64,000 nucleotides of DNA, taken from assembly GCA_019634695.1 (NCBI GenBank), contig JAHCAW010000004.1, positions 64,831 to 128,830 of the forward strand, written 5' to 3'. Source of the stretch: Candidatus Sumerlaeia bacterium. GTDB lineage: Bacteria; Sumerlaeota; Sumerlaeia; SLMS01; JAHLLQ01. Under the pieces are notes generated by a model, which worked only from the letters and a program-made list of their open reading frames with translations, searched no databases and had not been told where the DNA came from. Made by a program: the position numbers and the translations under genes. The number at the start of each line of letters is the position of its first letter. Position 1 is the first letter of the stretch. Shown one piece after another: positions 9,674 through 64,000 of this stretch.

Positions 9674-10621
9674 ATGCAACCGAAGCATTTGTCACTGCTC
9701 GCCGCTGGGGCATTGTGCCTCGTCGGTACCGCCGTCCAGGCCCAGCCGCACAAGCTGTTGATCTCCGAGGTGATCATCGACTGCATTAACCCGGAGGCGT
9801 CCAACGACTCCAGCGAGTGGATGGAAATCTACAATCCCAACAACTTTGCGGTCAGCCTCGACAACTACTACATCACCGACGTGAACTCCTACTGGACCTT
9901 CACGACCGCGACGGACAACAAGCTGCCGACGGCCGACTCGGACCACCTGATCGGCTTCCCGATCGGCTCGTCGATTCCGGCCAACGGCATCGTCGTCGTC
10001 ACGGCCCTGGCGAGCCGCTTCCTGACAGACTACCTCGACGGCAATCTGGCGACCTTCACCTCCCTGCCGGGCAACCCGCAGCTCTTCCAGGTGGGGCCGA
10101 CGCCGCCGGTCGGCGTCGAGCGCATGCGCAACTTCCACACCCTCGAGACTGCCAACGCCCAGACGAACTTCAGCCGCACGAATGCCGCCGCCGCCAACGG
10201 CGAATTCTCCGTCCTCTTCTACTGGGACGGCAACGCGTCCAACAACGTCGTGGACATCGACATGGTCTCGTGGGGCAACCCGACCGGCGGAAACCTGATC
10301 GCGCCGAAGACGGGCGTCAACGCGCCGGGCTACCAGGTCGATGGCGGCTCGCACACGAATCTCAGCGTCGGAACATTCGCGGCGATCTATCGCATCAGTG
10401 CGGCCGAACCCGGCCAGCCGAGCTCGGGCGGCAACGGCGTCGGCGGCACCGACGAGACGATGGAGATCAACGGCGCCACCGAGGCGAGTTCCTCCTGGCG
10501 CGGTCTGGCCATTGCCAATGTGCCAACCTACACGAACAACGACTTGGTCAACCCCGACGGAGTGACGCCGGGCGTCTCGCCGTTGCAGACCTCCAACGTC
10601 TCGACCTGGCCGATGTACTGA
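9674..10621 (+). CDS. Secreted lamin-tail-domain (LTD) protein
   Basis: Signal peptide (LLAAGALCLVGTAVQAQ), then an LTD signature: LLISEVIIDC...SSEWMEIYNPNNFAVSLDNYYITD. Confidence 0.7.
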   Translation: MQPKHLSLLAAGALCLVGTAVQAQPHKLLISEVIIDCINPEASNDSSEWMEIYNPNNFAVSLDNYYITDVNSYWTFTTATDNKLPTADSDHLIGFPIGSSIPANGIVVVTALASRFLTDYLDGNLATFTSLPGNPQLFQVGPTPPVGVERMRNFHTLETANAQTNFSRTNAAAANGEFSVLFYWDGNASNNVVDIDMVSWGNPTGGNLIAPKTGVNAPGYQVDGGSHTNLSVGTFAAIYRISAAEPGQPSSGGNGVGGTDETMEINGATEASSSWRGLAIANVPTYTNNDLVNPDGVTPGVSPLQTSNVSTWPMY

Positions 10622-21210: not shown

Positions 21211-21531
21211 ATGCAGGAAATCACACTCCTATACATCCCCTGTCCCTCCGAAGAGGAGGCATGCCGCATCGCACGCCACCTGCTCGACGCGCGCCTTGTC
21301 GCCTGCGCGAACTGGTTCCCGATCCGCAGCATGTACTGGTGGGAGGCAGCACTCGCCGAGGAGGGCGAGGTCGTGCTGCTTGCCAAGACGCTCCCCGCCA
21401 AGGCCGACGCCGTCGAAGCCGCAATCCGCGCCGTCCATCCCTACCAAGTGCCCTGCATCGCCCGTGTCGCAGCCTGCGTGAATGAAGAGTACGGCCGGTG
21501 GATGGAGAAGGAAGTAGATATTAGCCTTTAG
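21211..21531 (+). CDS. cutA: Divalent-cation tolerance protein CutA
   Basis: The 106-aa product contains CANWFPIRSMYWWEAALAEEGEVVLLAKT...HPYQVPCI, the typical CutA1 fold signature. ATG 21211 follows AGGGGGA. Confidence 0.85.
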   Translation: MQEITLLYIPCPSEEEACRIARHLLDARLVACANWFPIRSMYWWEAALAEEGEVVLLAKTLPAKADAVEAAIRAVHPYQVPCIARVAACVNEEYGRWMEKEVDISL

Positions 21532-21685
21532 TTGTTGGCTGTTGGAACGTGCCCTTCTGGAGCGTAGAGCAGCCGGCGGAACAAGCCTCTCCTCGGTCAA
21601 GGCACGAACCACAACCGCATCAGCTCAACAGCCAACAACTAACAACCAACAACTAGCCTCCAACGACTAACATTTTCTCCCCCCC
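21529..21685 (+). repeat. Heptad-periodic inverted-repeat intergenic element A (GT-rich arm, ~80-nt spacer, CA-rich arm abutting the next start codon)
   Basis: TAGTTGTTGGCTGTTG (21529-21544) is a perfect 16/16 complement of CAACAGCCAACAACTA (21626-21641). The CA arm continues as 7-nt units to about 21670. There is an inner stem CGTGCCCTT / AAGGCACG. The local GC content drops relative to the flanks. Confidence 0.6.
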
Positions 21686-22657
21686 ATGCTCCCCTCCTGC
21701 TCCATCGTCATCGTCACCTGGAACCGCCGCAAGGAGCTCGAGCCCTTGCTGGAGTCCGTCTTTGCACAGACAATCGCGGACCGGCTCGAGGTGATCGTTG
21801 TGGACAACGCCTCGACGGACGGGACGGTTGCGTGGCTGCGCGAGGCCTATGCCGGCCGCGTGCGCGTGTTTGCCTACGCGGAGAATCGCGGCGCGTGCGA
21901 CGGGCGCAACGCCGGCATTCGCGCCGCATCCGCGCCGTACGTCTGCTTCCTCGACTCCGACGCGGAGATACTCTCGCCCGACGCCATCGAGCGCTGCCTC
22001 GAGCACCTCGATGCCAATCCCGGCACCGACGCCGTCGCCGCCCCGATCTGGTTCGATCGCGCGAAGACCAATCCCTTCCTGCTCGGCGGTTATGTTACGC
22101 CCGACGGGCACTATCATGGAATCAGTTGCCGGTCGCGCGACGACGAACCCATGCTGCTCTCGACCTGTTTCGCCGTCTGGCGCAAGGCCACCCTGAAGGA
22201 GGTTCGCGGCTTCGATCCGTGGTACTTCTGGGGCATCGAGGACATGGACCTCGGCCTGCGGACCTATCATCGCCGCAAGCGCCACGATCCCGGCGCGCAA
22301 CCCTTCCGCATCGTGCGCGGCGTCGATGTGCTGCACGAGATGTCCACCGCCGGGCGCCACCACGACCCGCGCAGCTTCGAGCAGACTTTCGTGCGCTACG
22401 AGCGCCAGCGCCTCTACATGGTGCTCTCGTACGGCGGCCTCGGCCAATTCCTGCGCGTCGCCGCGCGTGGCCCATTCCGCATCCGCCGCATGGCCGACGC
22501 ATGGGAGCACGTGCTGACGCGGCGCCAGCGCTGGCAGGCCGCCGTCTGGTTTCCGCTGCTGCGCCTGCTGGCCTTGCCGAAGAACCTGCTCGACGTGCGG
22601 CGCAACCACCTCGCGCGCACGACGATGCCGGTCGAGGTGACGGATCAGAGCGCCTGA
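21686..22657 (+). CDS. Family 2 glycosyltransferase
   Basis: Classic GT2 N-terminus: CSIVIVTWNRRKELEPLLESV...VIVVDNASTDGT...ENRGACDGRNAGI...FLDSDAEI. Confidence 0.85.
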   Translation: MLPSCSIVIVTWNRRKELEPLLESVFAQTIADRLEVIVVDNASTDGTVAWLREAYAGRVRVFAYAENRGACDGRNAGIRAASAPYVCFLDSDAEILSPDAIERCLEHLDANPGTDAVAAPIWFDRAKTNPFLLGGYVTPDGHYHGISCRSRDDEPMLLSTCFAVWRKATLKEVRGFDPWYFWGIEDMDLGLRTYHRRKRHDPGAQPFRIVRGVDVLHEMSTAGRHHDPRSFEQTFVRYERQRLYMVLSYGGLGQFLRVAARGPFRIRRMADAWEHVLTRRQRWQAAVWFPLLRLLALPKNLLDVRRNHLARTTMPVEVTDQSA

Positions 22658-23872: not shown

Positions 23873-26260
23873 TCAGAATGTCAACTCGCCGTTGAGGAAG
23901 GCCATCGAGCGGGCCATGATCTCGGTGCGATGGGCCTCGTCCTGGATGGTTTCGAACGGGAAGGCAAGGTAGACGAGGCGCCATGGGCCGGCGTAGCGGA
24001 TGGCAGCGGCCTCGCCGGGGGCGCCGTTCGGATAGGTCAGGAACGCTTGGGCGCCGCCCATGGGACGCAGGACATCGGCGGTCGTGACGGGATAGGTGCG
24101 GCCGGTGCCGTCGTCGAAGGCGAGCGTGTCGACGCGCAGCAGCAGGCCGTCGCGAGCGTTTGCCGCCTGATTGATGCGCGCGGCGGGCCGGATGCACTCG
24201 ACCTTGAGCATCTCGCGCAGGAAGTCGCCGGCCAGATCGCGGCTGGCAAAGCCCAAGTCCGAGGCCAGGTTCGAGCCCGACACGAACAGGTTGCCGCCCG
24301 ACTCCAGGTACTCGCGCACCAGACGCCGTTCGAAACCGTCGAACGTCGAGCCCTCGCCCTCGTTGCCCAGCATCCACACGACGATGCGGTAGTCGCGCAG
24401 GCGCACGTCGCCGGCGATCACCGCCTCGTTGCTCGTCGAGTCGAAGTGCCAGCCCGTGGCGTGCAGCGCACTGCCGTGCTGCACCACGTAGTCGAACGTG
24501 TTCATCTTCGCGACGATCGTGCGTTCGAACTCGTTCCCGGGGAACGTCGTCGAGTCGACGAGGTTGAGGCCGCGGTCGAGCCGGTCGAAGCCGTTGACGA
24601 CGAGCACCTCGGGCTGAAGCGTGCGCTCGGGTGCGCGAACGGCCAGCGTCTCGGTCGGCATCGATTCGCCGCCCTCGTTGACGGCCACAACGCGGAAGTA
24701 CTCGACCTGTCCGGGCAGCACACCCTCGAGCACCGTGCTGGTCGTATCCACCACCGTGCCGTTGTCGAACCCGTAGCCATTGCGCGAGCGATACACGCGA
24801 TAGCTCGTCGCGGCGTCGCCCAGCACGCCGTCGCCCTTGTCGAACGCCGGCGGGTTCCACGCCACCTCGATGCGGTTCATGCCCGTCTTGCGCACGCGCA
24901 GGTGCGTGGGCGGCTCGGGCAGGCGCGTCGCGATGTCGAAGCCGTCGACCTCTTCATGGAAGTACTTCAGGATGCCATGGTAGACGGCGCGGGCGGAGAT
25001 GCGCCGGAAGTCCGGATCCAGAATGTGTCCCGCGTCGGCGGGATTGTCGTGATAGCCGTTCTCGACGAGCACCGCCGGCATCTTCGCGTTGGCCGCCGGA
25101 TTCGTCTCGCCCAGCCAGCGCGTGATCAGGCCGACGTCCTCCCAGCGCGCATCGTAGGCCGTGCGCACATGGTGCAGCACCTCGTCGTGGACGATGCGGC
25201 CGAGCACGTCGCCGCCCGGATAGCCCGTGAAGTCCCACGGCGGGCCCCACGCATTCGGTCCGTAGATGTAGGTCGACAGCCCGCTCATCGTGTGCGTCTC
25301 GCTGCCGTTGGTGTGCCACGACACGTAGATCGAGCGATTCTTCTCCCACGGCTCGGCTTCCCACTCGGCATAGCGCGGCATCGCCCGCACCTGGTTCCAG
25401 GTGCGCAGGTCGTCCTCGGCCACCGGCATGCCCATGAACGGGGCGTAGTACAGGCCGGACTCCTCCCAGCGCGGCTTGCCGCTCAGGGTGCCGGCGACGC
25501 GCGTGTCGCCCATGCCGCCGCCAAAGCGCACCGCACCCAGCGCCACATGCTCGCCGGCGCGACTGCTCGAGTTGTCCAGCACCACGGCGCCGCGCAGCGC
25601 GTCGCGTCCCGCCTCGAAGTGATACGTGCCCAGGTACTTCCAGGTGCTGTGGTCGCGGTTCAGGTCCTGCCGCCATTCGGTCGAGCCACCGCTGTGGCGG
25701 ATCGTCAGGCGCGCGTCGGTGCTCGTGCGTCCGCGCCGCACCGGCGAGTACCACGCGTAGACCGCGTAGTAGCCGTCGGCGGGGATGCGCGGCACATAGG
25801 CGACACGCGCGTTCGGCTCGCCCCGCACCGTCGAGGCGACCAGTTGCGTGCCCCCCCAGACGTTTTCGTTGTCCTCGCGCTTCCACGATCCCTGCGTGAC
25901 CGGCGATCCGCTCTCGGCGGTCACCACGGCCATTTGCGTCTGCATGTCGCGCTCGCGCGTCGTCACGACGTTGGCGCCAGCGTTCCACAGGTACGGCAGC
26001 AGAAACTGGTTCACCGCCTCGGCGTTGCTCAGGTCCTCGACGATGCGATTGAGCGGACCCCGCTGGGTGGTCCAGCGGCCGTTGGTGTGGTGCCAGCCGT
26101 GGCCGGCACTGACGAAGATCGTCGCGCCGGTCAGGGCGCCCACCGGCTGGGCCTCGCCCCGCTCGGGGGGCTTGGTCTTCGAGGCCGGGGCCGCGGTCGC
26201 CAGCACGGCGGCCAGCCCGGTTCCCGCAACGGCTCGTCCGATTGTCCGAAGTCTGCTCAT
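23873..26260 (-). CDS. Exported multidomain protein, paralog 1: split Amidase_3-like (MurNAc-L-Ala amidase) domain with a golvesin-like insertion, an FN3 domain and an uncharacterised C-terminal domain
   Basis: Signal peptide present. Amidase_3-like elements: SAGHGW, NAEAVNQ, NVVTTRERD, IYVSWHTN, VLVENGYHDN. Golvesin-like pattern: PADGYYAVYAWY...WKYLGTYHF...GAVRF. FN3-like segment: PTHLRVRKTGMNRIEVAWNPP...YRVYRS. The start was trimmed to ATG 26260 (MSRLRTIG); track ORF 23873..27232 reads through into the paralog. Confidence 0.7.
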   Translation of the reverse strand: MSRLRTIGRAVAGTGLAAVLATAAPASKTKPPERGEAQPVGALTGATIFVSAGHGWHHTNGRWTTQRGPLNRIVEDLSNAEAVNQFLLPYLWNAGANVVTTRERDMQTQMAVVTAESGSPVTQGSWKREDNENVWGGTQLVASTVRGEPNARVAYVPRIPADGYYAVYAWYSPVRRGRTSTDARLTIRHSGGSTEWRQDLNRDHSTWKYLGTYHFEAGRDALRGAVVLDNSSSRAGEHVALGAVRFGGGMGDTRVAGTLSGKPRWEESGLYYAPFMGMPVAEDDLRTWNQVRAMPRYAEWEAEPWEKNRSIYVSWHTNGSETHTMSGLSTYIYGPNAWGPPWDFTGYPGGDVLGRIVHDEVLHHVRTAYDARWEDVGLITRWLGETNPAANAKMPAVLVENGYHDNPADAGHILDPDFRRISARAVYHGILKYFHEEVDGFDIATRLPEPPTHLRVRKTGMNRIEVAWNPPAFDKGDGVLGDAATSYRVYRSRNGYGFDNGTVVDTTSTVLEGVLPGQVEYFRVVAVNEGGESMPTETLAVRAPERTLQPEVLVVNGFDRLDRGLNLVDSTTFPGNEFERTIVAKMNTFDYVVQHGSALHATGWHFDSTSNEAVIAGDVRLRDYRIVVWMLGNEGEGSTFDGFERRLVREYLESGGNLFVSGSNLASDLGFASRDLAGDFLREMLKVECIRPAARINQAANARDGLLLRVDTLAFDDGTGRTYPVTTADVLRPMGGAQAFLTYPNGAPGEAAAIRYAGPWRLVYLAFPFETIQDEAHRTEIMARSMAFLNGELTF

Positions 26261-28644
26261 GGGCGCACGTCCTGCGTCAGGCGTTTGTCGCTCTGCAAGT
26301 CCAGAAAGCGCATGGCGTTGTTGACGACGGCACGCCGCGCCAACGGGTCCTCGATCGTCTCGATCGGAAAGCCCAGCACCACCAGGCGATGCGGATACTG
26401 GGTTTGCAGCGCGGCGACTCCCTTGCCGCCGGCGTAGTTCAACGCCGCGCGCGCCCCGCCCGTCGCCGCCAGAACGTCGGGCGTCTTCACCGGATAGACC
26501 GCCGCGTCGCCGCCGAAAGCGAATGGCGCAATGCCCTCGAAGATCGAGCCGGCCGCGGGCTCCGCCGTGCGCGTGCCCGAGTCGGTGGCGACGAAGCTGG
26601 CTTGCAGCACGCCGCGCAGGAAGCCGCTGTCGGCCCGCTCGAGGTCCGCCGCGATCTCCGAACCCGAGAGCAGCATCGTGCCCCCGCCGCCCAGGTACGA
26701 CCGCACCAGCTCGCGCTCGACGGCGTCCAGCGTCCCCGCCTCGCCACCCTGTTGTCCCAGCATCCACACCACCACGTCGTAGCCGGCCAGTGCCACCGCT
26801 CCATCGCGCACGGCCGCACGGCCCACCGACTCGAACGGATATCCCGCTGCCGCCAACCCGTCGGCGTGCTGGATCACGTAGTCGAACGTGTTCATCTTCG
26901 CGAGAATGCCGCGCTCGACACCGGCCTCGGTGACCAGGTTGAGCCCGCGGTCCAGGCGGTCGAAGCCGTTGACCACCAGCACGCGGGGCTTCTGGCCCGC
27001 GAGGTGGCGCACGGCCAGCGTCTCGGTCGGCAGCGACTCGCCGCCTGCGTTCGTTGCCGCCACGCGCACGAACAGCGTTTCGCCCGAGGGCACCGGTCCC
27101 AGCGTCGTCGTTGTGCCCTCGACGGCCATGCCGTTGTCGAAGCCCTTGCCGTCGCGCGAGCGATACAGACGATAGCCGGTCGCCGCATGGCCGAGCTGCG
27201 CGCCGTCGGTCTCGAACGGCGGTGGATTCCATGCCACTGTCACGCGTCCGCCGGTCGTCGCCAGCACCCGCAGGTGCGTTGGCGGCTCCGGCAGGAACGT
27301 CGCGTTGTCGAAGCCGGGCATCTGCTCGGCATAGTGATGGACGATGCCTTGATATACCGCCCGCGCCACCAGTTGACGGAAGCGCGGATCGAGGATGTAG
27401 CCCGCGTCCTCGACGTTGTCATGGAAGCCCATCTCGTACAGCGCGGCCGGCATCTTCGTGTTGTTGCGCGGATTCGTCTCGCCCAGCCAACGGCAGACCA
27501 CGTTGCCATTGCGCCACTGCGGGTCCCAGTCGGCGCGCACGGCGCCCAGGATTCGATTGTGCACCGCCACGCCCAGCACGTCGCCGCCCGGGATGCCCGA
27601 GAACTCCTCCAGCCCGCCCCAGGAATTCGGTCCATACACGAAGCTGAACAGCCCGCGTGCCGTCCCGTTGTGCGCGTTCGTGTGCCACGACACGTAGACC
27701 GAGCGATCCTTCTCCCACGGCTCGCACTCCCACGAGGCATAGAACGGCATCGCGTTGACGGAGTTGAGCGGGCGCGAGTCGGCCGCGGCATTGTAGCCCA
27801 TGAACGGCGCGTAATACAGACCGGACTCTTCCCAGCGCGGGTAGCCACTCTGGCCCATGCCGCCGCCGAAGCGGATGGCGTCGATCGTGATGCGGTCGCC
27901 GTCGCGGCCGGTGGCGTTCGTCACCAGCACGGAGCCCTCGGCGGCGCGCGCTCCCTTGCGGAAGTGGTACGTTCCGAGATACTTCCAGGTCTCGGAGTCG
28001 CGATTCAGGTCCTGCTGCCAGATGGTCGTGCCGCCGGTGTGCTGGATCGCGAACTCGGCCGAGGTGGTGGTGCGGCCGGTGCGCGAGGCATTGTACCAGG
28101 CGTAGACGGCGTAGTGGCCATCCTCGGGGATGTCGGGGGTGAAGGTGGCCTTGGCGACATCGCCATTCTGACCGGGCTTGAGCCGGGCGGCATCGATCGT
28201 GCGGGCTACGCGGTGGCGCCCGTCGCGGGCGGCCGGGTGGGCCTCGTCGGTCCAGGGGCCGGACTCGGCGTAGCCAGTACTGCCCGGCGCCGCCTCGACG
28301 ATCACCATGTTCGTCTGCATGTCGCGCTCGCGCGTCGTCACGACGTTGGCGCCCGCGTTCCACAGGTAGGGGAGCAGATACTGCAGCACCGATTCGGCGT
28401 TGCTGTGATCCTCGATGACGCCGTGGCTGTTGCCGCGCTGCGTGACCCAGCGGCCCAGCCGCTCGTTCCACAGCCAGCCATGGCCCGGGCTGACGAAGAC
28501 GGTCGCGCCCGAGAGCGCCCCGGTGGGCTGTGCGCGCCGCACGTCCTGCGGCGCCGGCTCCGTGGCCGGCGCGCCCACAGGCACCGCCAGCATCAGGCCA
28601 GCCAACATGCCGACGGCCACCGCCGGCGTCGCCTGTCGTTTCAT
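26257..28644 (-). CDS. Exported multidomain protein, paralog 2, with the same architecture as 23873..26260
   Basis: It aligns with paralog 1 from end to end (GHGW, NAESVLQYLLPYLWNAGANVVTTRERDMQT, VYVSWHTN, PEDGHYAVYAWY, PTHLRVLATTGGRVTVAWNPP). Its stop overlaps the paralog 1 start (ATGA at 26257-26260). Confidence 0.7.
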   Translation of the reverse strand: MKRQATPAVAVGMLAGLMLAVPVGAPATEPAPQDVRRAQPTGALSGATVFVSPGHGWLWNERLGRWVTQRGNSHGVIEDHSNAESVLQYLLPYLWNAGANVVTTRERDMQTNMVIVEAAPGSTGYAESGPWTDEAHPAARDGRHRVARTIDAARLKPGQNGDVAKATFTPDIPEDGHYAVYAWYNASRTGRTTTSAEFAIQHTGGTTIWQQDLNRDSETWKYLGTYHFRKGARAAEGSVLVTNATGRDGDRITIDAIRFGGGMGQSGYPRWEESGLYYAPFMGYNAAADSRPLNSVNAMPFYASWECEPWEKDRSVYVSWHTNAHNGTARGLFSFVYGPNSWGGLEEFSGIPGGDVLGVAVHNRILGAVRADWDPQWRNGNVVCRWLGETNPRNNTKMPAALYEMGFHDNVEDAGYILDPRFRQLVARAVYQGIVHHYAEQMPGFDNATFLPEPPTHLRVLATTGGRVTVAWNPPPFETDGAQLGHAATGYRLYRSRDGKGFDNGMAVEGTTTTLGPVPSGETLFVRVAATNAGGESLPTETLAVRHLAGQKPRVLVVNGFDRLDRGLNLVTEAGVERGILAKMNTFDYVIQHADGLAAAGYPFESVGRAAVRDGAVALAGYDVVVWMLGQQGGEAGTLDAVERELVRSYLGGGGTMLLSGSEIAADLERADSGFLRGVLQASFVATDSGTRTAEPAAGSIFEGIAPFAFGGDAAVYPVKTPDVLAATGGARAALNYAGGKGVAALQTQYPHRLVVLGFPIETIEDPLARRAVVNNAMRFLDLQSDKRLTQDVRP

Positions 28645-29335: not shown

Positions 29336-30073
29336 ATGCGTCGTCTCAAAGGTTTCACCCTGATCGAACTGCTCATCGTGGTGGCCATCATCGCCATCCT
29401 GGCCGCCATCGCGGTGCCCAACTTCCTTGAGGCCCAGGTACGCTCGAAGGTCTCGCGCGCCAAGTCCGACATGCGCACAGTGGCCACGGCCCTCGAGGCC
29501 TACACGGTCGACTACAACAAGCCCCCTTCCATTGTCGCCCGCCATGCCAGCATCACCAACTCGCCGCTGACGCCCAACAGCGTCCTCAACGGCCCCAGCC
29601 TCTATTATCCTCAGCAGACCCCGGGCGTTAGCTCGCGCCTGCTCGTCCTGACCACCCCCGTTTCCTACATCACCAGCGTCGGCCGCGACCCGTTCATCAA
29701 CCCGGCCGTCCGCTTCGCCATCTCCTGCAACGGCACCGCCCCCCTTCCCGAGTACGACACCTACGACTACGTCGACTCGTTCACCATCAACCCCAATGGC
29801 CCGTACCCGACCTTCAACACCGGCGTGAACGCCAACCGCGCGGCCGGCCTCTCCTCCGGTTCCGCCTGGCACCTCGTCAGTGCCGGCCCGGACCTTGAGA
29901 ACTGCTTCGGTGGTGGCCACCAGGGCCAGACCGCCTTCCATGAGGGCGGCGCCGACTACGATCCGACCAACGGCAGCGTTTCGCGCGGCGACATCGTCCG
30001 CGTCTCGTCCGCCCGCGGCGAGGTCTATCCGAACTTCGCCCCGGCCCACAACCGCGCCGCTCGCGGCAACTGA
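29336..30073 (+). CDS. GspG-like pseudopilin with a prepilin-type N-terminal cleavage/methylation domain
   Basis: MRRLKG/FTLIELLIVVAIIAILAAIAVPNFLEAQVRSKVSRAKSDMRTVATALEAY. No other secretion-system genes are adjacent. Confidence 0.85.
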   Translation: MRRLKGFTLIELLIVVAIIAILAAIAVPNFLEAQVRSKVSRAKSDMRTVATALEAYTVDYNKPPSIVARHASITNSPLTPNSVLNGPSLYYPQQTPGVSSRLLVLTTPVSYITSVGRDPFINPAVRFAISCNGTAPLPEYDTYDYVDSFTINPNGPYPTFNTGVNANRAAGLSSGSAWHLVSAGPDLENCFGGGHQGQTAFHEGGADYDPTNGSVSRGDIVRVSSARGEVYPNFAPAHNRAARGN

Positions 30074-35567: not shown

Positions 35568-35746
35568 GGGAGAAGAAGGCGGAGTGCTGAGGGCAAAGGG
35601 CGGTCAGCGCCCCGAGCTCCCGCGAGGTCGCGTGCCTGCGCCCTCCAAGTGCTCCTCGTCATCTGCCAACCAGTCCCTGTCATCCATGGCGACAGTCTCC
35701 GAGTTCCCAAACTCGTTCGATGTCCAATCTGATCCTGCACGAAGAA

Positions 35747-39015: not shown

Positions 39016-39708
39016 TCACTGGCCGGTGTAGGTGCCGACCGTCTGCTTTTGGGTGCGGGTGATGCTGCCCAGCGACACGGTGCCGTTCGTCGGGTCGTAG
39101 GGGAGCATGACGGAATGCCCGAGCAGGGTCGGGTGCGAGACGAGCATGCGCTGGCGGCCCGGCCCCAGCGAGGCGAGCACCCACATGCCCTGGATGTTGC
39201 GGGCGGCGATGGCGCCGTCGGTGTCAGGGTGGAAGCTGACGCGCCGATAGTCCATGTTGCACTGGTAGTAGTAGCGCTTGCCTGCGTGCGCGTCGCCGCC
39301 CGGATCCAGCGGATAGCCTGCCAGCGGGCCGTAGGGGACGACCTCGCCCGTGCGCGTCAGTCCCTGGAAGTCGCCCAGATTGGGCATGATGAACGGGTCG
39401 GGGAAGTTGGCCGTCGAGACATAGGCAATGGGGGTGCTCAGGTGATTGGGCACCACGCGCAGGACCCCGACGTCGCCCTGCGAGACGAATGGCGTCGGCG
39501 GATACTGAGGGTTGTCGATGCGGTAGGCTTCCAGAGCCGTGGCAAGGCTGCGCATGTCGGAGTGCGCCCGGCTGACCTTTGAACGGACCTGGGCCTCCAG
39601 GAAGTTCGGGACCGCGATCGCCGCCAGAATGGCGATGATCGCCACGACGATCAGGAGTTCGATGAGGGTGAAGGCGCGCGTAGGGGAATGGAGGGGATGC
39701 GATCGCAT
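39016..39708 (-). CDS. GspG-like pseudopilin, paralog of 29336..30073
   Basis: ...PTRA/FTLIELLIVVAIIAILAAIAVPNFLEAQVRSKVSRAHSDMRSLATALEAY. The N-terminal 55 aa are nearly identical to the other pseudopilin at protein level but diverge at synonymous sites. Confidence 0.85.
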   Translation of the reverse strand: MRSHPLHSPTRAFTLIELLIVVAIIAILAAIAVPNFLEAQVRSKVSRAHSDMRSLATALEAYRIDNPQYPPTPFVSQGDVGVLRVVPNHLSTPIAYVSTANFPDPFIMPNLGDFQGLTRTGEVVPYGPLAGYPLDPGGDAHAGKRYYYQCNMDYRRVSFHPDTDGAIAARNIQGMWVLASLGPGRQRMLVSHPTLLGHSVMLPYDPTNGTVSLGSITRTQKQTVGTYTGQ

Positions 39709-51751: not shown

Positions 51752-53191
51752 ATGTACACATCTCTTGGCGCCTGGTGCGCCCTTGGTGCCTTGGCCGCCA
51801 TGGCCCTGATGACCGGTTGCGCGGCCGCGCCGCGAAGCGTTCCGCCCATCGACCGGCCTGCGCCCGAGCTGCGACGCGACACGCGCAACCACGCCAAACC
51901 CATCACCGTCTGGTTCGACGCCACGGCCAATTGGGAACGCCTGATGACGCGCGAAGGTGTCGCCGCCATGATGGACAAGTGCGTCGCCGCCGGCGTCGAT
52001 GCTGTCGTGATCGACGTCAAGCCGATCTCCGGCCATGTGCTGCACAACTCGCGCCTGGCGCCGAAGCTGCTCGAGTGGAAGGGCGTCCCGCATGTCGATC
52101 CGGACTACGATCTGCTTGCCGTCGCGATCGACGAGGGCCGGCGCCGCGGGCTCAAGGTGCTCGCCTCGCTCAACATCTTCGCCGAGGGCCACATCGGGTC
52201 CGACGAAGCGGGCGTCGCGCGTCACGGCAACCTGCTCGACGATCCGCGCATGGCCGATTGGGTCAGCATCGACTACGTCGTGCCGCAGGGCGCGACGGCG
52301 CCGGCCTTTGTGCCCGCCACGCAGGGCGTGCGCGGCCACGCCATGTTCGTCAGCGCCGCGAACCGCGAGGCCGTCGCGTACCAGATGGCGCTGCTGCGCG
52401 AGGTCGCCGCCTATCCCGGGCTCGACGGCATCTGTCTGGACCGCTGCCGCTGGTCGGGCGCCACGGCGGACTTTTCGCCCGCCGCGCGCGCCGGCTTCGA
52501 GGCATGGCTCGGCCATCCCGTCGCCAACTGGCCCGAGGACATTCTGCGCTGGGTGCGCGAGGACGCCACCGACGATCAGCCCATCGGCGACGAGGCCGAG
52601 CGCACCGCCCGCGGCGTCGAGGCACGCTTCGCCATGGAACGCGGCCCGCTCTGGCAGCGTTGGATCGTCTGGCGCGCGCAAGTCATCCACGACCTCATCA
52701 TCGAGGCCCGCAACGTCATCCTCGGCACCAACCCGGACCTCGTCTTCGCCAACTACACCGGCGCGTGGTACGCGAGCTACTACGGCGAGGGACTCAACTG
52801 GGCCTCGCCGCGCTACAACCCGGCCGACGACTACGACTGGGCCCTGCCCGAATACCAGCAGACCGCCTTCGCCCATCTGCTCGATCACCTCTACCATGGC
52901 TGGTACTACACCGACGTGACCGAGGAGCAGGCCCGCGCCAACAATCGCCCCGCCTGGGCCAGCATGGAAGGCACCGCACGCCTGGTCGACGACATCATCC
53001 TCGGCGACGTCCCCGTCCACGGCGGGCTCTATCTCTTCCAGTACCAGGGCAACCCGGAGCTCTTCCGCCAATGCATGCGCGCCGCCTACGACGGCAGCCA
53101 GGGCCTCATGCTCTTCGACCTCATCTACCTCGAGGACTACGACTGGTGGGACGAAATCCCGCGCACGTTTCCGGAGCGGAAGCAGCCCTGA
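51752..53191 (+). CDS. Lipoprotein, glycoside-hydrolase-like family 10 (GHL10/DUF187-like TIM barrel)
   Basis: Lipobox: ALMTGCAA. ITVWFDATANW...CVAAGVDAVVIDVKPISGHVLHNS...RRRGLKVLASLNIF resembles GHL10. ATG 51752 follows GGAGGAGAGG. Confidence 0.55.
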   Translation: MYTSLGAWCALGALAAMALMTGCAAAPRSVPPIDRPAPELRRDTRNHAKPITVWFDATANWERLMTREGVAAMMDKCVAAGVDAVVIDVKPISGHVLHNSRLAPKLLEWKGVPHVDPDYDLLAVAIDEGRRRGLKVLASLNIFAEGHIGSDEAGVARHGNLLDDPRMADWVSIDYVVPQGATAPAFVPATQGVRGHAMFVSAANREAVAYQMALLREVAAYPGLDGICLDRCRWSGATADFSPAARAGFEAWLGHPVANWPEDILRWVREDATDDQPIGDEAERTARGVEARFAMERGPLWQRWIVWRAQVIHDLIIEARNVILGTNPDLVFANYTGAWYASYYGEGLNWASPRYNPADDYDWALPEYQQTAFAHLLDHLYHGWYYTDVTEEQARANNRPAWASMEGTARLVDDIILGDVPVHGGLYLFQYQGNPELFRQCMRAAYDGSQGLMLFDLIYLEDYDWWDEIPRTFPERKQP

Positions 53192-53213
53192 CGCGCCGTC
53201 CCGGCGCACGCCG

Positions 53214-53908
53214 CACTTCTGTACCCCGAGCGCCAGCGAGGTGGCATGCCTCCGTCCACCCGCCGGCGTCGCCCGCGTCGGAGCGGCTCAGGAGGATGCC
53301 CACACGTGGATCTTCGCTTCCAGCCCGACGGGCCGTGCGCCTACTTCATCTCATTCAGGACCTACGGGACATGGTTGCACGGCGACGAACGAGGTTCGAC
53401 CGACCGCCGCAGCAGTCGATACGGCGCACCCCTGCTTCCGCCCAATCCGCGCTTCGAGCGGCTACGACGTGGCCGACTCACGCAGCCCCCCACGCTGCTG
53501 GGACACGGCGCCCGCATGTGTGTGGAGCGCGCCATCCGCGAGACTTGCACGCACAGGACATGGAGGCTCCACGCCCTTTCCGTTCGCAGCAACCATGTCC
53601 ATGTAGTGCTGACCGCGCCCGAGCAGAAGCCTGAGCCCGTCATGGGTAGCCTGAAGGCTTGGGCGACACGCCGCTTGCGGCAAGCGGGGCACTTCGACAC
53701 GGCTGTCCGCATCTGGTCGCACCATGGGAGCACCAGATACCTCTGGAACGAGGCGGACATCCTGAGCTGCTGTGAGTATGTCTTGGAATGCCAAGGGGAT
53801 GGTCCCGCCGAAGAACTGTGATTGCCCCGGCCAAGGGTACTGGTGGAGACAGGATGCGGTGGGTGGGCTGAGGCATGCCGCCTCGCTTGCGCTCGGGGTA
53901 CAGAAGTG
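53214..53908 (+). mobile_element. RAYT/IS200-like unit: a Y1 (HUH) transposase gene flanked by 51-bp imperfect inverted repeats
   Basis: Left repeat (53214-53264): CACTTCTGTACCCCGAGCGCCAGCGAGGTGGCATGCCTCCGTCCACCCGCC. Reverse complement of the right repeat (53858-53908): CACTTCTGTACCCCGAGCGCAAGCGAGGCGGCATGCCTCAGCCCACCCACC. They match at 46 of 51 positions by my alignment. Confidence 0.7.
53306..53821 (+). CDS. REP-associated tyrosine transposase-like protein (IS200/IS605 Y1 HUH family)
   Basis: YFISFRTYGTWLHGDERGS, the HUH motif in RSNHVHVVL, and a C-terminal Tyr context GSTRYLWNE. GTG 53306 follows GGAGGA. The track ATG 53246 lies inside the left inverted repeat. Confidence 0.7.
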   Translation: MDLRFQPDGPCAYFISFRTYGTWLHGDERGSTDRRSSRYGAPLLPPNPRFERLRRGRLTQPPTLLGHGARMCVERAIRETCTHRTWRLHALSVRSNHVHVVLTAPEQKPEPVMGSLKAWATRRLRQAGHFDTAVRIWSHHGSTRYLWNEADILSCCEYVLECQGDGPAEEL

Positions 53909-54048
53909 ATGGCGTGCAAGAGTGGGGGACCAGATGCGGGCGTGGCAATGAGGGGCGCGGGTCCACGGGGATCGGCTGATGGCATCGCCCGTATGGTGGC
54001 ATGCCGCTCGCTGAGAGCGTCCAACCAGCAGGGAAGGGTCGGTTCACC

Positions 54049-55242
54049 ATGAAGATCGGCATCGTGTGCTATCCCACGTACGGCGGTTCGGGCGTCGTGG
54101 CCACCGAGTTGGGGCGCTTTCTTGCGCTGCGCGGGCACGAGGTGCATTTCATCTCGTCGTCGATTCCGTTCCGGTTGGTGCACGAGCCCATCGACGGCAT
54201 TGTGTTTCACGAGGTGCAGACGCTCGAGTATCCCGTCCTGCAGGGCGACCTGTACGGCATCGCGCTGGCCTCGAAGATCGTGCAGGTCGTGCAGGACTTC
54301 GGGCTCGACGTCGTGCACGTGCACTACGCCGTGCCGCACGCGATTTCGGCGTTCATGGCGCGCGCGGTGCTCGGCCGTCAGGAGCACCCGTTCAAGGTGG
54401 TGACGACGCTGCACGGCACGGACATCACGCTGGTCGGCCGCGCGCCGTCGTTCTTTCCGATCGTGCGCTATGCGATCGACCGGTCGGATGCCGTCACCGC
54501 GGTGTCGGACTGGTTGCGCATGGAGACGATCCGCGCCTTCGACGTCAAGCGCCCCATCGACGTGATTCCGAACTTCGTGGACGAGAAGAAGTTCCGCCGC
54601 GGGCTGAAGCCCTGCAAGCGCGGCGTCTATGCCCCGCGCGGCGAGAAGATTCTGCTGCACATTTCGAACTTCCGCCCGGTGAAGCGCGTCGTCGACGTCG
54701 TCGAGATCTTCGCGCGCGTTCGCCGCGAGACGCCCGCCGTGCTGCTGATGGTCGGCGACGGGCCGGACCGCGACGCGGCGCGCAACCGCGCGTGCCAACT
54801 CGGCGTCCTCGACGGCGTCCACTTCCTCGGCAAGCAGGAGGCCATCGAGTTCTTCATGTCGTGCGCCGACCTGTTCCTGTTCCCCAGCGAGTACGAGTCG
54901 TTCGGCCTCGCGGCGCTCGAGGCCATGGCGTGCGAAGTGCCCGTCGTCGCGTCCCGTGCCGGCGGCCTGCCCGAAGTGATCGACCACGGCCGCACCGGGT
55001 TCCTCGCCCCGATGGGCCACGTCGAGGAGATGGCCGCGCTTGCGCTCCATGTGCTGAAGGACGACCGGTTGCGCGCCGAGATCGGGCGCGCCGCCCGCGC
55101 CAGCGTCGAGCAGCACTTCCTGCCCGAGCGCATCATTCCGCAGTACGAGGACCTCTACGCGCGCGTCCTGCGCGAGTCGGCACCCGTGCGCGCCGACGAC
55201 GGGAACCGCGAGATGAGTTACCTCTACGCCGACGGCATCTGA
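54049..55242 (+). CDS. bshA: GT4 glycosyltransferase of the BshA type (N-acetyl-alpha-D-glucosaminyl L-malate synthase-like)
   Basis: The sequence resembles BshA end to end: MKIGIVCYPTYGGSGVVATELG...HFISSSIPFRL, VHVHYAVPHA, TTLHGTDITLVG, ISNFRPVKRV, LLMVGDGPD, SEYESFGLAALEAMACEVPVVASRAGGLPEVIDHGRTGFL, IIPQYEDLY. Confidence 0.7.
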   Translation: MKIGIVCYPTYGGSGVVATELGRFLALRGHEVHFISSSIPFRLVHEPIDGIVFHEVQTLEYPVLQGDLYGIALASKIVQVVQDFGLDVVHVHYAVPHAISAFMARAVLGRQEHPFKVVTTLHGTDITLVGRAPSFFPIVRYAIDRSDAVTAVSDWLRMETIRAFDVKRPIDVIPNFVDEKKFRRGLKPCKRGVYAPRGEKILLHISNFRPVKRVVDVVEIFARVRRETPAVLLMVGDGPDRDAARNRACQLGVLDGVHFLGKQEAIEFFMSCADLFLFPSEYESFGLAALEAMACEVPVVASRAGGLPEVIDHGRTGFLAPMGHVEEMAALALHVLKDDRLRAEIGRAARASVEQHFLPERIIPQYEDLYARVLRESAPVRADDGNREMSYLYADGI

Positions 55243-62855: not shown

Positions 62856-62878
62856 GGAGGGCTCCGGGAGCGGGGGAA

Positions 62879-63155
62879 GTTGTTGGTTGTTGGTGACTAG
62901 TTGTTGGTGATTAGTTGTTGGTGATTAGTTGTTGGTTATTAGTGGTTGGTCATTAGAAGCGAACGTTGTGCCGAAGATCGGAACCCGAGTTGCCCGTCGA
63001 AGCCTTGGCGAAGACGGGAGCCTTTGACGGAGACGAAGGCGTCAGCGACCGGCATTCCCCAGCCTTCCATCAAGCCTCTGTCCCTTCTCCTGCCACCATC
63101 CGCCACAACTCTCCACCCACCAAGAACCAACAACTAATAACTAATAACTAATAAA
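62879..63155 (-). repeat. Heptad-periodic inverted-repeat intergenic element C (largest copy)
   Basis: On the plus strand, 62879-62956 is 11 consecutive heptads: GTTGTTG GTTGTTG GTGACTA GTTGTTG GTGATTA GTTGTTG GTGATTA GTTGTTG GTTATTA GTGGTTG GTCATTA. 63117-63155 carries the same heptads inverted (CCACCAAGAACCAACAACTAATAACTAATAACTAATAAA). There is a perfect 14-nt complement between 62924-62937 and 63125-63138. Confidence 0.65.
62959..62973 (-). promoter_or_regulatory. Weak sigma-54-type -24/-12 candidate inside the spacer of element C
   Basis: The minus strand reads CGGCACAACGTTCGC. It has GG-N10-GC spacing and resembles TGGCAC-N5-TTGC with two core mismatches. It lies about 105 nt upstream of the NtrC-type gene start. 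Confidence 0.25.
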
Positions 63156-63166
63156 CCCGAATTCCG

Positions 63167-63211
63167 CTCTCTGCCCTCTGCCCTCCGCCCTCCGCCCTCT
63201 GCCCTCCCCTC
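63167..63211 (-). repeat. C-rich (minus strand G-rich) heptad array abutting the DUF502 stop codon; G-quadruplex-type sequence
   Basis: Plus strand: CTCTCTGCCCTCTGCCCTCCGCCCTCCGCCCTCTGCCCTCCCCTC. The minus strand therefore has seven GGG(G) runs separated by 1-4 nt. Confidence 0.6.
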
Positions 63212-64000
63212 TTACTCCTCCTCCTCGCTCTTCGCATTCGGCAGATGCACGGTCAGCGGTTCGGGGGGCGGCAGCTTGGGCGGGGTGTCCAGGCCATTGA
63301 ACGGCGCGGTGTGCATCGAGTTCGGCGACAGGATGCCGCCGGAGATGATGAAGCGCACGGCGTCCTCGGTGGTCATGTTGATGTCGTGCACATCCTCGGC
63401 CGGCACCATGAGCAGGAAGCCGCTGGTGGGGTTGGGCGTCGTGGGCAGGAAGACGGTGACGATCTTGCGGTTGCCGGGCTGGAGGAATATCTCGCCGGTG
63501 GCGTAGGCGATGCACCAGATGCCGCGGCGGGGATACTCCAGGGCAACCACGCGTTTGACGCTGTCGCGCTTGGCGGTCAGCGTGCGCAGCACCTCGCGCG
63601 GCGTGACGTAGAAAAAGCGCACGAGCGGGATGCGCTCGACGATGCGCTCGCCGAGACGGATCAGGCGCCGCACCAGGAAGAAGCGCGAGAGCACGCCCGC
63701 GGCCAGGATGAACAGCAGCGTCAGGAAGAGCGAGACGCCGATCGTCAGCGGCGCGGCCAGCCGTTCCGGCCACGCCACAAGGTCCAGAAACGCCCGGACG
63801 ATCGGATCGATCATCTTGCCGACGTTGCGGTTCAGCAGGTCCGCCATGATCATGATCGCCCAGATCGTGATCATGGCCGGGATGACGGTGATCAGGCCGG
63901 CGATGAAGCGGCTGCGCAGCAGCTCGATGATGCCCGGCCGCGGATGCGGGACGGCGCGGATCCCGGCGTCGGGGGGTGTGGGGGATTCTTGCGAGTGACT
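63212..64000 (-). CDS. DUF502-family membrane protein, with its 5' end beyond the window
   Basis: VRRLIRLGERIVERIPLVRFFY...LEYPRRGIWCIAYATG...VFLPTTPNPTSGFLLMVPAEDV matches DUF502. My reverse translation stays open upstream of the track ATG (63874) to the window edge (...IIELLRSRFIAGLITVIPAMITIW). The gene probably starts outside the window, or at a non-ATG codon. Confidence 0.75.
   Translation of the reverse strand, partial: SHSQESPTPPDAGIRAVPHPRPGIIELLRSRFIAGLITVIPAMITIWAIMIMADLLNRNVGKMIDPIVRAFLDLVAWPERLAAPLTIGVSLFLTLLFILAAGVLSRFFLVRRLIRLGERIVERIPLVRFFYVTPREVLRTLTAKRDSVKRVVALEYPRRGIWCIAYATGEIFLQPGNRKIVTVFLPTTPNPTSGFLLMVPAEDVHDINMTTEDAVRFIISGGILSPNSMHTAPFNGLDTPPKLPPPEPLTVHLPNAKSEEEE

Follow-up and report, generated by a model that had tools for sequence, protein, structure and literature searches.

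A probable REPtron-like Class 3 TnpA_Y1 cassette upstream of bshA in a Candidatus Sumerlaeia bacterium

Layout of the locus

The 64,000-nucleotide stretch of DNA analysed here (the window; positions 64,831 to 128,830 of the forward strand of contig JAHCAW010000004.1, assembly GCA_019634695.1, from a Candidatus Sumerlaeia bacterium) contains, just before bshA, a short gene for a predicted Y1 transposase of the HUH type, bracketed by a pair of inverted repeats. The gene (53306..53821, plus strand) has a GTG start and encodes a 171-amino acid (aa) protein, P0001. The reading frame is open from an ATG at 53246, inside the left repeat, and its stop is at 53819-53821; the GTG at 53306 is the start that agrees with homologues and with the database gene call P0001, and is situated 10 nt after an AGGAGG sequence (53290-53295). 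We judge it probable, for the reasons given below, that the locus is a REPtron-like Class 3 TnpA_Y1 cassette, in which a single-copy gene for a HUH/Tyr enzyme lies between two inverted, cognate units resembling repetitive extragenic palindromic (REP) sequences.

The inverted repeats that an earlier note on this DNA had described around the 171-aa open reading frame (ORF) are indeed present, with arms at 53214-53265 and 53857-53908 that are 52 nt long, complementary at 47 of 52 positions (90%) and separated by 591 nt. With one indel allowed they lengthen, via a common GCACGCC, to 53206-53265 on the plus strand (60 nt) and 53857-53917 on the minus strand. A 37-nt arm probe finds two sites in the window at up to 3 mismatches, namely both arms, against an expectation of 0.00 (none in 100 shuffles). 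Each arm holds one REP-like unit of about 36 nt, the left copy at 53215..53250 (plus strand) and the right copy at 53872..53907 (minus strand). The downstream neighbour, which is outside the element, is bshA (54049..55242, plus strand), encoding N-acetyl-alpha-D-glucosaminyl L-malate synthase; this identification is upheld by TIGR03999 (528 bits against a cut-off of 274), with a match that begins at the ATG at 54049.

The Y1 protein

The protein passes the cut-off of the Pfam Y1_Tnp model (28.3 bits against 23) and fails those of the NCBIfam models transpos_IS200 (NF033573; 30.6 bits against 55) and REP_Tyr_transpos (NF047646; 29.5 bits against 80). A sequence-profile search of the Protein Data Bank (PDB) gave weak matches, the best being ISDra2 TnpA at an E value of 0.05, and no match to Escherichia coli TnpA_REP (4ER8) at E<=1, so that a comparison of folds was needed. 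The AlphaFold (AF2) model has a predicted local distance difference test score (pLDDT) of 87.9, and when it was compared with the PDB using Foldseek all of the top 30 matches were Y1 transposases (probability 1.00, E 1e-5 to 9e-4); these include ISDra2, IS608, a Sulfolobus IS200 enzyme and, at rank 8, E. coli TnpA_REP (4er8). The Pfam match, the motifs described below and the fold matches together therefore identify the protein, as far as sequence and modelled structure can tell, as a bona fide Y1 HUH enzyme that is roughly equidistant from IS200-type TnpA and from a canonical REP-associated tyrosine transposase (RAYT), and the Y1/HUH identity proposed earlier for this ORF holds.

Alignment of 36 homologues provides further insights into the active site. 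All 15 of the invariant residues of the family are present in the window protein, in which NHVHVV corresponds to residues 96-101 and STRYLW to residues 142-147. The HUH residues H97 and H99 (53594-53602, plus strand) are invariant, as is Y158 (53777-53779, plus strand), which is placed on the C-terminal helix of the model; Q163 (53792-53794, plus strand), five residues farther along this helix, is at least 90% conserved. The catalytic residues can thus be found on alignment, as the earlier note had anticipated, although the tyrosine that it had singled out is not the best candidate: Y145 of STRYLW is about 90% conserved, is Trp in P0009 and is placed at the end of a beta-strand, and from the alignment and the model it is likely that Y158 rather than Y145 is the catalytic residue. 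In IS608 TnpA the tyrosine, Y127, is on the C-terminal helix and a glutamine, Q131, is the third metal ligand; by analogy with this arrangement Q163 is likely to be the third metal ligand here.

There is one copy of the Y1 gene in the window. Its GC content at third codon positions (GC3) is 0.756, compared to 0.927 for bshA and 0.886 for the upstream gene, which suggests either foreign origin or weak codon selection.

Relationship to Class 3 and to canonical RAYTs

The relatives of Y1 transposases have been split into three classes (Quentin, Siguier, Chandler and Fichant 2018, BMC Genomics 19:475, PMC6006769). Class 3, defined from just 14-24 proteins, is characterised by NHVH, then W[TA], then YV[VI][AENY]EQ (Y----Q) in proteins of about 178 aa; it is rare, its hosts are Planctomycetes, Acidobacteria and Proteobacteria, and it was proposed as a link between IS200-type insertion sequences (IS) and domesticated REP-associated transposases (PMC6006769). 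Examples are Solibacter usitatus ABJ83664.1, Legionella pneumophila ABQ56422.1 and Planctomyces limnophilus ADG69454.1, and the Legionella unit is given in Table S1 as CCGAG CCGC GA CC GTAA GG GA GCGG with the structure ((((..((....))..)))) (PMC6006769). Solibacter has about 600 copies of its Class 3 structure and three close gene copies, and it is because of these gene copies that Class 3 was said to be of a kind that 'resembles both IS and REPtrons' (PMC6006769).

The window protein has each of the Class 3 motifs. The HUH motif is N96-H97-V98-H99, W[TA] is found as W followed by A in LKAWATRRL, and the tyrosine motif is YVLECQ (Y158...Q163), in which the Y, V, E, Q and their spacing fit, with L in place of V/I and, just before the Q, C in place of E. 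The length is also near 178 aa. Short atypical structures flank the gene at 53224-53244 (plus strand) and 53898-53878 (minus strand) and share the architecture of the Table S1 units of Legionella, Planctomyces and Solibacter, which are stem-GA-2 bp-GTNA-2 bp-GA-stem hairpins with a 5' foot, lying beside the gene and dispersed in the genome; the further copies here were seen in metagenome contigs only. The exact Legionella Class 3 hairpin, CCGCGACCGTAAGGGAGCGG, is found beside metagenomic homologues of the window protein. On the strength of NHVH, W-A and YVLECQ together with the matching hairpins, we assign the locus by its sequence as a new member of Class 3 TnpA_Y1 in all of the features compared (motifs and hairpins).

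There are differences from published Class 3, notwithstanding this assignment. The host phylum, Sumerlaeota, is outside the published list; the foot is CTGTA (C-n-G-T-A) and not CnGA(G), such that C-n-G is kept with T as the fourth base; a 1-base bulge interrupts the outer stem; the loop is GCCA or GCAA and not GTNA; and there are about 5-15 copies of the unit compared to about 600 in Solibacter, with one unit on each side of the gene and not several.

The earlier note had called the enzyme a RAYT, and we considered whether it is a canonical RAYT (TnpA_REP) with classical REPs or REPINs (class 2; Bertels groups 2 and 3). The resemblance to the E. coli REPtron (TnpA_REP, RAYT, YafM; PDB 4ER8; GTAG-tagged REPs and bacterial interspersed mosaic elements, BIMEs) is substantial in architecture: a single-copy Y1 HUH gene lies between inverted hairpin units, the unit is scattered through intergenic DNA, and it is an imperfect hairpin whose irregularity and 5' foot are the recognition features. 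Moreover, many homologues are labelled 'REP element-mobilizing transposase RayT' by the Joint Genome Institute (JGI), and TnpA_REP has the same fold (Foldseek E 3.8e-5, template modelling (TM) score 0.48). However, the REP_Tyr_transpos score is far below its cut-off, the tyrosine motif is YVxxxQ and not YIxxNP, and the GT[AG]G foot is absent, as the junction of CTGTA and CCCC reads GTAC and not GTAG or GTGG. E. coli REPs are 20-40 nt with a long stem, whereas the unit here has a 4+2 bp stem and a G.A/G.A loop, and such short 'atypical' internal-loop hairpins were kept apart from canonical REPs by Quentin et al. (PMC6006769). A canonical RAYT is accordingly very improbable, and of the earlier designation what stands is a Y1 HUH enzyme with REP-like flanks. 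Since the protein is of Class 3, the premise that RAYTs are 'single-copy domesticated' transposases cannot simply be transferred to it.

The repeat unit and its hairpin

The consensus of the unit is (A)CTTCTGTACCCCGAGCGC[C/A]AGCGAGG[T/C]GGCATGCC, and the left copy, (A)CTTCTGTACCCCGAGCGCCAGCGAGGTGGCATGCC, is made up of the foot CTGTA (53219-53223), a hairpin and the tail CATGCC. The left hairpin (53224..53244, plus strand) is CCCC GA GC GCCA GC GA GG(T)GG, so that with its foot the window unit reads CTGTA CCCC GA GC GCCA GC GA GG(T)GG, and the right hairpin (53878..53898, read on the minus strand) is CCCC GA GC GCAA GC GA GG(C)GG. Within the unit the two arms differ at two bases, one in the loop and one in the bulge. 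In both hairpins the outer stem has 4 bp and a 1-nt bulge, the internal loop is a tandem GA/GA, the inner stem has 2 bp and the tetraloop is GNNA, which gives the conserved core CCCC-GA-GC-GNNA-GC-GA-GG(N)GG after the foot CTGTA. The repeat had previously been described as centred on the palindrome GGCATGCC; the matches of metagenome contigs place this sequence at the 3' end of the dispersed unit and not at its centre, and it is confined to this lineage, being missing from the homologues' units. It is the hairpin that is conserved as a structure.

A strict scan for this hairpin finds the two arms and nothing else in 64 kb, compared to 0.11 expected. A relaxed definition, admitting any 2x2 loop, was rejected as its count in the window is at chance level (24 against 23.4 expected), and only the GA/GA form is therefore informative. 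Across 22 units, 94.7% of cells are paired, whereas shuffles give 72% and sliding of the partners gives about 40%, and five of the six stem pairs vary on both sides, the stem changes being compensatory.

The G.A/GNNA form is possible on the foot-bearing strand only, and the units flanking the gene are accordingly on opposite strands with their feet outward. This strand-limited fold, together with the placement of the units on opposite strands, points to a role in single-stranded DNA rather than in one transcript.

Two further sequences in the window resemble the unit. A partial third copy, which the earlier note had also picked out, is present at 53998..54012 (minus strand), 37 nt before the bshA start; it consists of the 3' half of the unit only (AGCGAG-CGGCATGCC), the 5' half being unrecognisable, and is not significant alone, as a 16-mer search gives 6 matches with 1.6 expected. 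By its sequence it is probably a decayed unit. Its candidacy as the orthologue of the right unit of a related cassette, L097 (described below), was rejected, as the alignment score of 21 is reached by 49 of 500 shuffles. A possible relic, CCCCGAGCTCCCGCGAGGTCGCGTGCC (35610..35636, plus strand), lies past the end of the nearest plus-strand ORF of at least 150 aa and matches the unit at 23 of 27 positions with the hairpin broken; its local alignment score is 34, against 24-28 in five shuffles, and we regard it with low confidence as a relic copy.

Copy number and dispersal in metagenomes

Metagenomes containing this organism allow the unit and the gene to be counted separately. Contig depth reaches 36-86 over 53872-53907 compared to 4-8 in the flanks, with a similar rise over 53215-53250, and in four metagenomes the depth of the unit core is about 4-20 times that of the flanks. 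In run X1 a 35-nt unitig corresponding to the unit is at depth 20, compared to 4.6 for the locus. In X1-X5 and X7, several separate contigs match the arms over only about 33-40 nt (1-5 differences) and then diverge; the matches begin at 53215/16 and end at 53250/51, after which the sequence is unlike that of the window. These diverging, unit-bearing contigs have a depth near that of the locus itself, and identical junction sequences are found again in independent runs. The gene behaves differently, as one 1155-nt unitig of X1 joins the upstream gene to the complete Y1 gene, with one uniform depth equal to that of the flanks.

Because the rise in depth is limited to the unit and the gene lies in a unitig of one depth, we conclude from these short metagenome contigs that the approximately 36-nt unit is dispersed and the Y1 gene is single-copy. 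The repeat family predicted by the earlier note thus exists in the metagenomes, and the arrangement is the opposite of the ordinary IS that it had named as the alternative, namely a repeat found once and a gene in several copies.

Homologues and generality of the hairpin

A word-indexed search finds 2,941 homologous proteins at E<=1e-3, the best non-self match being about 60% identical. A profile of 36 members recovers 4,370, 2,649 and 782 representative clusters (defined at 50% identity) at E<=1e-3, 1e-10 and 1e-30 respectively. Locus-specific units flank the gene in all seven distinct homologue loci examined as well as in the L097 pseudogene, and they share a common plan, in which a 5' foot is followed by a C-rich/G-rich stem of 3-4 bp, a 2x2 loop, a 2-bp stem and a GNNA loop. 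The 2x2 internal loop is usually GA opposite GA, with departures in L003, L008 and L009. Locus L004, for example, has CAGTA CCGC GA GT GCAA AC GA GCGG and CAGAA CCGC GA CA GAAA TG GA GCGG, and L006 has GCCC GA CC GTCA GG GA GGGC; the feet among homologues are CAGTA, CAGAA, CTGAA and CCGAG. The units occur as inverted pairs in L006, L008, L003 and L004 and as tandem arrays in L009, with 2 upstream and 7 downstream.

The association of the hairpin with the gene is general. A strict hairpin is found no more than 300 nt from the gene in 46 of 80 metagenomic homologue loci, and hairpin density over the 80 loci is 2.07 per kb near the gene compared to 0.076 per kb farther off, a 27-fold difference. 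Orientation is biased as in the window, with 43 plus and 12 minus upstream, and 33 minus and 19 plus downstream.

We also scanned species-representative genomes for the core pattern and obtained 92 matches in 87 stretches, from metagenome-assembled genomes (MAGs) of Omnitrophota, Acidobacteriota (Pyrinomonadaceae, Blastocatellia), Actinomycetota, Chloroflexota, Planctomycetota, Candidate Phyla Radiation (CPR) groups and others. As TAC was fixed by the scan pattern it is uninformative in these matches, and only bases outside the pattern count; among these, the outer stem is closed beyond the pattern in 64 of 92 matches, of which 53 have GGGG and 11 have GGnGG, the bulged form of the window.

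Several observations were made in passing. The core TAC-CCCC-GA-GC-GNNA-GC-GA-GG(GG) is found near letter-for-letter across many phyla (L010-L096) with lineage-specific tails, and it also occurs in CPR, Acidimicrobiia, Dehalococcoidia and Phycisphaerales. About 13 hairpin loci, with inverted doublets, were counted in one Omnitrophota MAG, and about 10 matches in one Acidobacteria MAG. Several predicted products of 690-1579 aa (P0241, P0242, P0246, P0249, P0257, P0286, P0311, P0356 and P0366) contain a complete Class 3 domain, and these could be real fusions or read-through gene calls. The gene call for P0036 (210 aa) at L004/L005, over 10001-10147, begins about 147 nt early, homology starting at 10148, and the early part traverses two hairpin units (10035 and 10066).

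These data bear on whether the hairpins act chiefly in some other way and are not mobilised by the Y1 protein, either as RNA elements (a terminator, insulator or mRNA stabiliser) or as double-strand binding sites on the GGCATGCC palindrome. Tandem G.A pairs and a GNNA loop are well known as stable motifs in RNA, the units are intergenic and near gene ends, and recurrence of the core in many phyla suggests constraint on the sequence itself. However, there is no matching Rfam family on the repeat (the locus at E<=10, the whole window at the gathering score) and no terminator-like or promoter-like site in 53100-54150; one transcript would carry just one of the opposite-strand units in the G.A/GNNA form; the lineage-specific GGCATGCC is missing from the units of homologues; and the 27-fold enrichment is beside Class 3 genes. 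We therefore regard such a role as unlikely to be the principal one, although it is partly compatible with a REPtron-like cassette as classical REPs have secondary roles of this kind.

Host and history of the site

The best named relatives of the window BshA are from Candidatus Sumerlaeota/Sumerlaeia, with 83% identity to that of a named MAG and 96% to that of a JGI contig (L097; JGI 3300045912, contig Ga0484959_001415). From the bshA start onward the L097 DNA is 92% identical to the window, and upstream it is non-syntenic. A homologous Class 3 cassette, in which no gene has been called, is nevertheless present just before bshA at L097 5300-6000, the same place as in the window. The flanking units of L097 are CTGAA CCC(C/G) GA G(C/T) GTCA GC GA ..., with a CTGAA foot and a GTCA loop, and the 3' extension of the left arm in the window, GCCTCCGTCCACCCGCC, is homologous to the left L097 unit (39/47, score 47, compared to a shuffle maximum of 27). 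Two in-frame TGA stops interrupt the Y1 frame of L097, and invariant residues are lost in it (W23C, H140Q); because of these it is read from the sequence as a pseudogene. A more distant relative within Sumerlaeota (83% identity; L098/L099) has no cassette before bshA.

A second line of evidence comes from runs X4 and X5, in which the flanks are identical to the window but 53287-53860 is left uncovered even at 80% likeness. After 53183, one contig runs on into ...AATCAGAACCCGGAG, which is a unit of the L097 type. Over 53184-54052 these runs have a second allele of the cassette, very unlike that of the window, on a near-identical background. The decayed cassette of L097 and the X4/X5 allele together indicate, as far as the sequences can tell, that the cassette is old at this site, varies from one close strain to another and, in at least one lineage, is decaying. 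The earlier note had spoken of a gene inserted upstream of bshA; insertion as such is not demonstrated, as no empty site was found among the relatives and runs at the bshA locus, and a decayed homologous cassette occupies the same place in L097.

Alternatively, the locus could be an ordinary autonomous IS of the IS200/IS605 type, in which the gene and its ends move together and the short copies are solo ends or chance matches. In favour of this, very different alleles are found in near-identical strains, the site is at a break in synteny, and the GC3 of the gene (0.76) is below that of its neighbours (0.89-0.93). The Class 3 Y----Q motif was said to be related to the motif of class 1, the home of IS200 TnpA, and Solibacter has its three close gene copies (PMC6006769). 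The best structural matches are IS608 and ISDra2 TnpA (PDB 2vjv and 2xma; E 1.3e-5 to 8e-5, target-normalised TM up to 0.69), ISDra2 TnpA is also the best PDB-profile match, and these enzymes share with the window protein the HUH motif, a Tyr on the C-terminal helix and, in IS608, a Gln as third metal ligand.

The ends of IS200/IS605 elements are left- and right-end hairpins on the same strand, with no terminal inverted repeats, and the whole element moves and is usually multi-copy. In contrast, the window units form a 52-nt inverted repeat, one on each strand, it is the approximately 36-nt unit alone that is dispersed, and the whole element is not repeated, there being one copy in the window and one X1 unitig at flank depth. 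There is no tnpB adjoining the gene, the protein fails the NCBIfam IS200 cut-off, and homologues have unit arrays and REPIN-like pairs, such as the array of L009. The window protein also differs from IS608/ISDra2 TnpA in its Tyr-Gln spacing (5 and not 4) and in an added N-terminal segment, YGTWLHGDxRGS. An ordinary IS is, on balance, improbable.

Other repeats in the window

An apparent second family of intergenic repeats is present at 21515-21697 and 62856-63165, the arms of both elements aligning; runs of an AT-richer unit of about 14 nt (TTAGTTGTTGG(TGA)) face their complement (CCAACAACTAA) across an 80-150-nt spacer, and neither element matches an Rfam family. The loose ends of metagenome contigs beside dispersed 36-nt units also hold GCAAC/AACAAG-rich runs, and the two kinds of repeat may sit together elsewhere. 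A simple C/T-rich repeat (CTCTGCCCTCTGCCCTCCGCCCTCCGCCCTCTGCCCTCC) at 63160-63215 directly follows the second AT-rich element. Many segments of two adjacent stretches, 24557-26046 and 26932-28421, which are about 2,372 nt apart, are 75-86% identical and look like tandem paralogous genes. Finally, a 162-nt inverted repeat (29354-29515 and 39511-39672; 80% complementary, arms about 10 kb apart) probably corresponds to a pair of oppositely oriented, related genes.

Discussion

The 171-aa product is predicted, from its sequence, its modelled fold and analogy with related enzymes, to be a HUH/Tyr endonuclease-ligase of single-stranded DNA. The substrates of IS608 and ISDra2 TnpA are single-stranded hairpins that have a 5' guide tetranucleotide, and by analogy with these enzymes and with E. 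coli TnpA_REP we propose that a dimer of the Class 3 enzyme would bind the unit folded in single-stranded DNA, such as the lagging-strand template, and would read the loop, the G.A irregularity and the foot. With a divalent metal held by H97, H99 and Q163, Y158 could cut nearby to give a 5'-phosphotyrosine link, and strand transfer could then excise units or copy them to new intergenic sites.

Several points weigh against a REPtron-like Class 3 cassette. We infer cleavage and mobilisation by Class 3 enzymes from related ones; E. coli TnpA_REP has proven cleavage activity, whereas no Class 3 activity is on record, the 2021 study in Nucleic Acids Research (PMC8266576) concerning Bertels groups 2 and 3 only, and experiments on Class 3 were called for by Quentin et al. 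(PMC6006769). Copy number was derived from short metagenome contigs, and co-occurring relatives could in principle be the source of the extra copies. The family is small, with about 5-15 extra unit copies per run at 80% likeness or more, and neither the strict scan nor local alignment finds a further intact copy in the 64-kb window. None of the 87 stretches of 8 kb with the hairpin core from other genomes contains a Y1 gene by tblastn.

Further points concern the hairpin itself. The imperfect hairpin expected by the earlier note is borne out by covariation and by the strict scan, but not by nearest-neighbour energies, as single arms fold no better than shuffles (z -0.3 to +1.4). Several of the units in the covariation set were chosen by a filter that requires pairing, which inflates that result somewhat. 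Tandem G.A pairs and mini-hairpins of the GNNA or d(GCGNNAGC) type are stable, and a nearest-neighbour model may undervalue these motifs. The structural case is thus built on covariation together with the stability of G.A and GNNA motifs.

Notwithstanding these reservations, we favour a REPtron-like cassette. It is conceivable, though rather unlikely, that Class 3 cassettes are in addition a still-mobile intermediate between IS and REPtrons which has spread between phyla with one almost fixed single-stranded DNA hairpin. The grounds for this are the core (G/T)TAC-CCCC-GA-GC-GNNA-GC-GA-GGGG, near letter-for-letter in MAGs of many phyla, the two very different cassette alleles at the locus and the foreign-looking codon usage. 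If this were true, the enzyme would recognise a universal and unusually stable G.A/GNNA DNA mini-hairpin, and whole cassettes would be exchanged or replaced at REP-marked sites.

The element is of a known but little-studied kind and not a new kind of system; it is low-copy, intact and in a new phylum. The locus adds an intact and clean Class 3 example from a further phylum, Sumerlaeota, to a class that is large in current data (the 782 clusters at 50% identity and E<=1e-30), and gives a precise predicted model of the hairpin, with a foot, 4-bp stem, tandem G.A, 2 bp and GNNA loop. Its annotation gains from a corrected assignment of the likely catalytic tyrosine and from the recognition that the GGCATGCC palindrome is not the basis of the repeat. 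For the study of Class 3, the 171-aa protein and a 37-nt oligonucleotide offer a compact pair of enzyme and predicted substrate.

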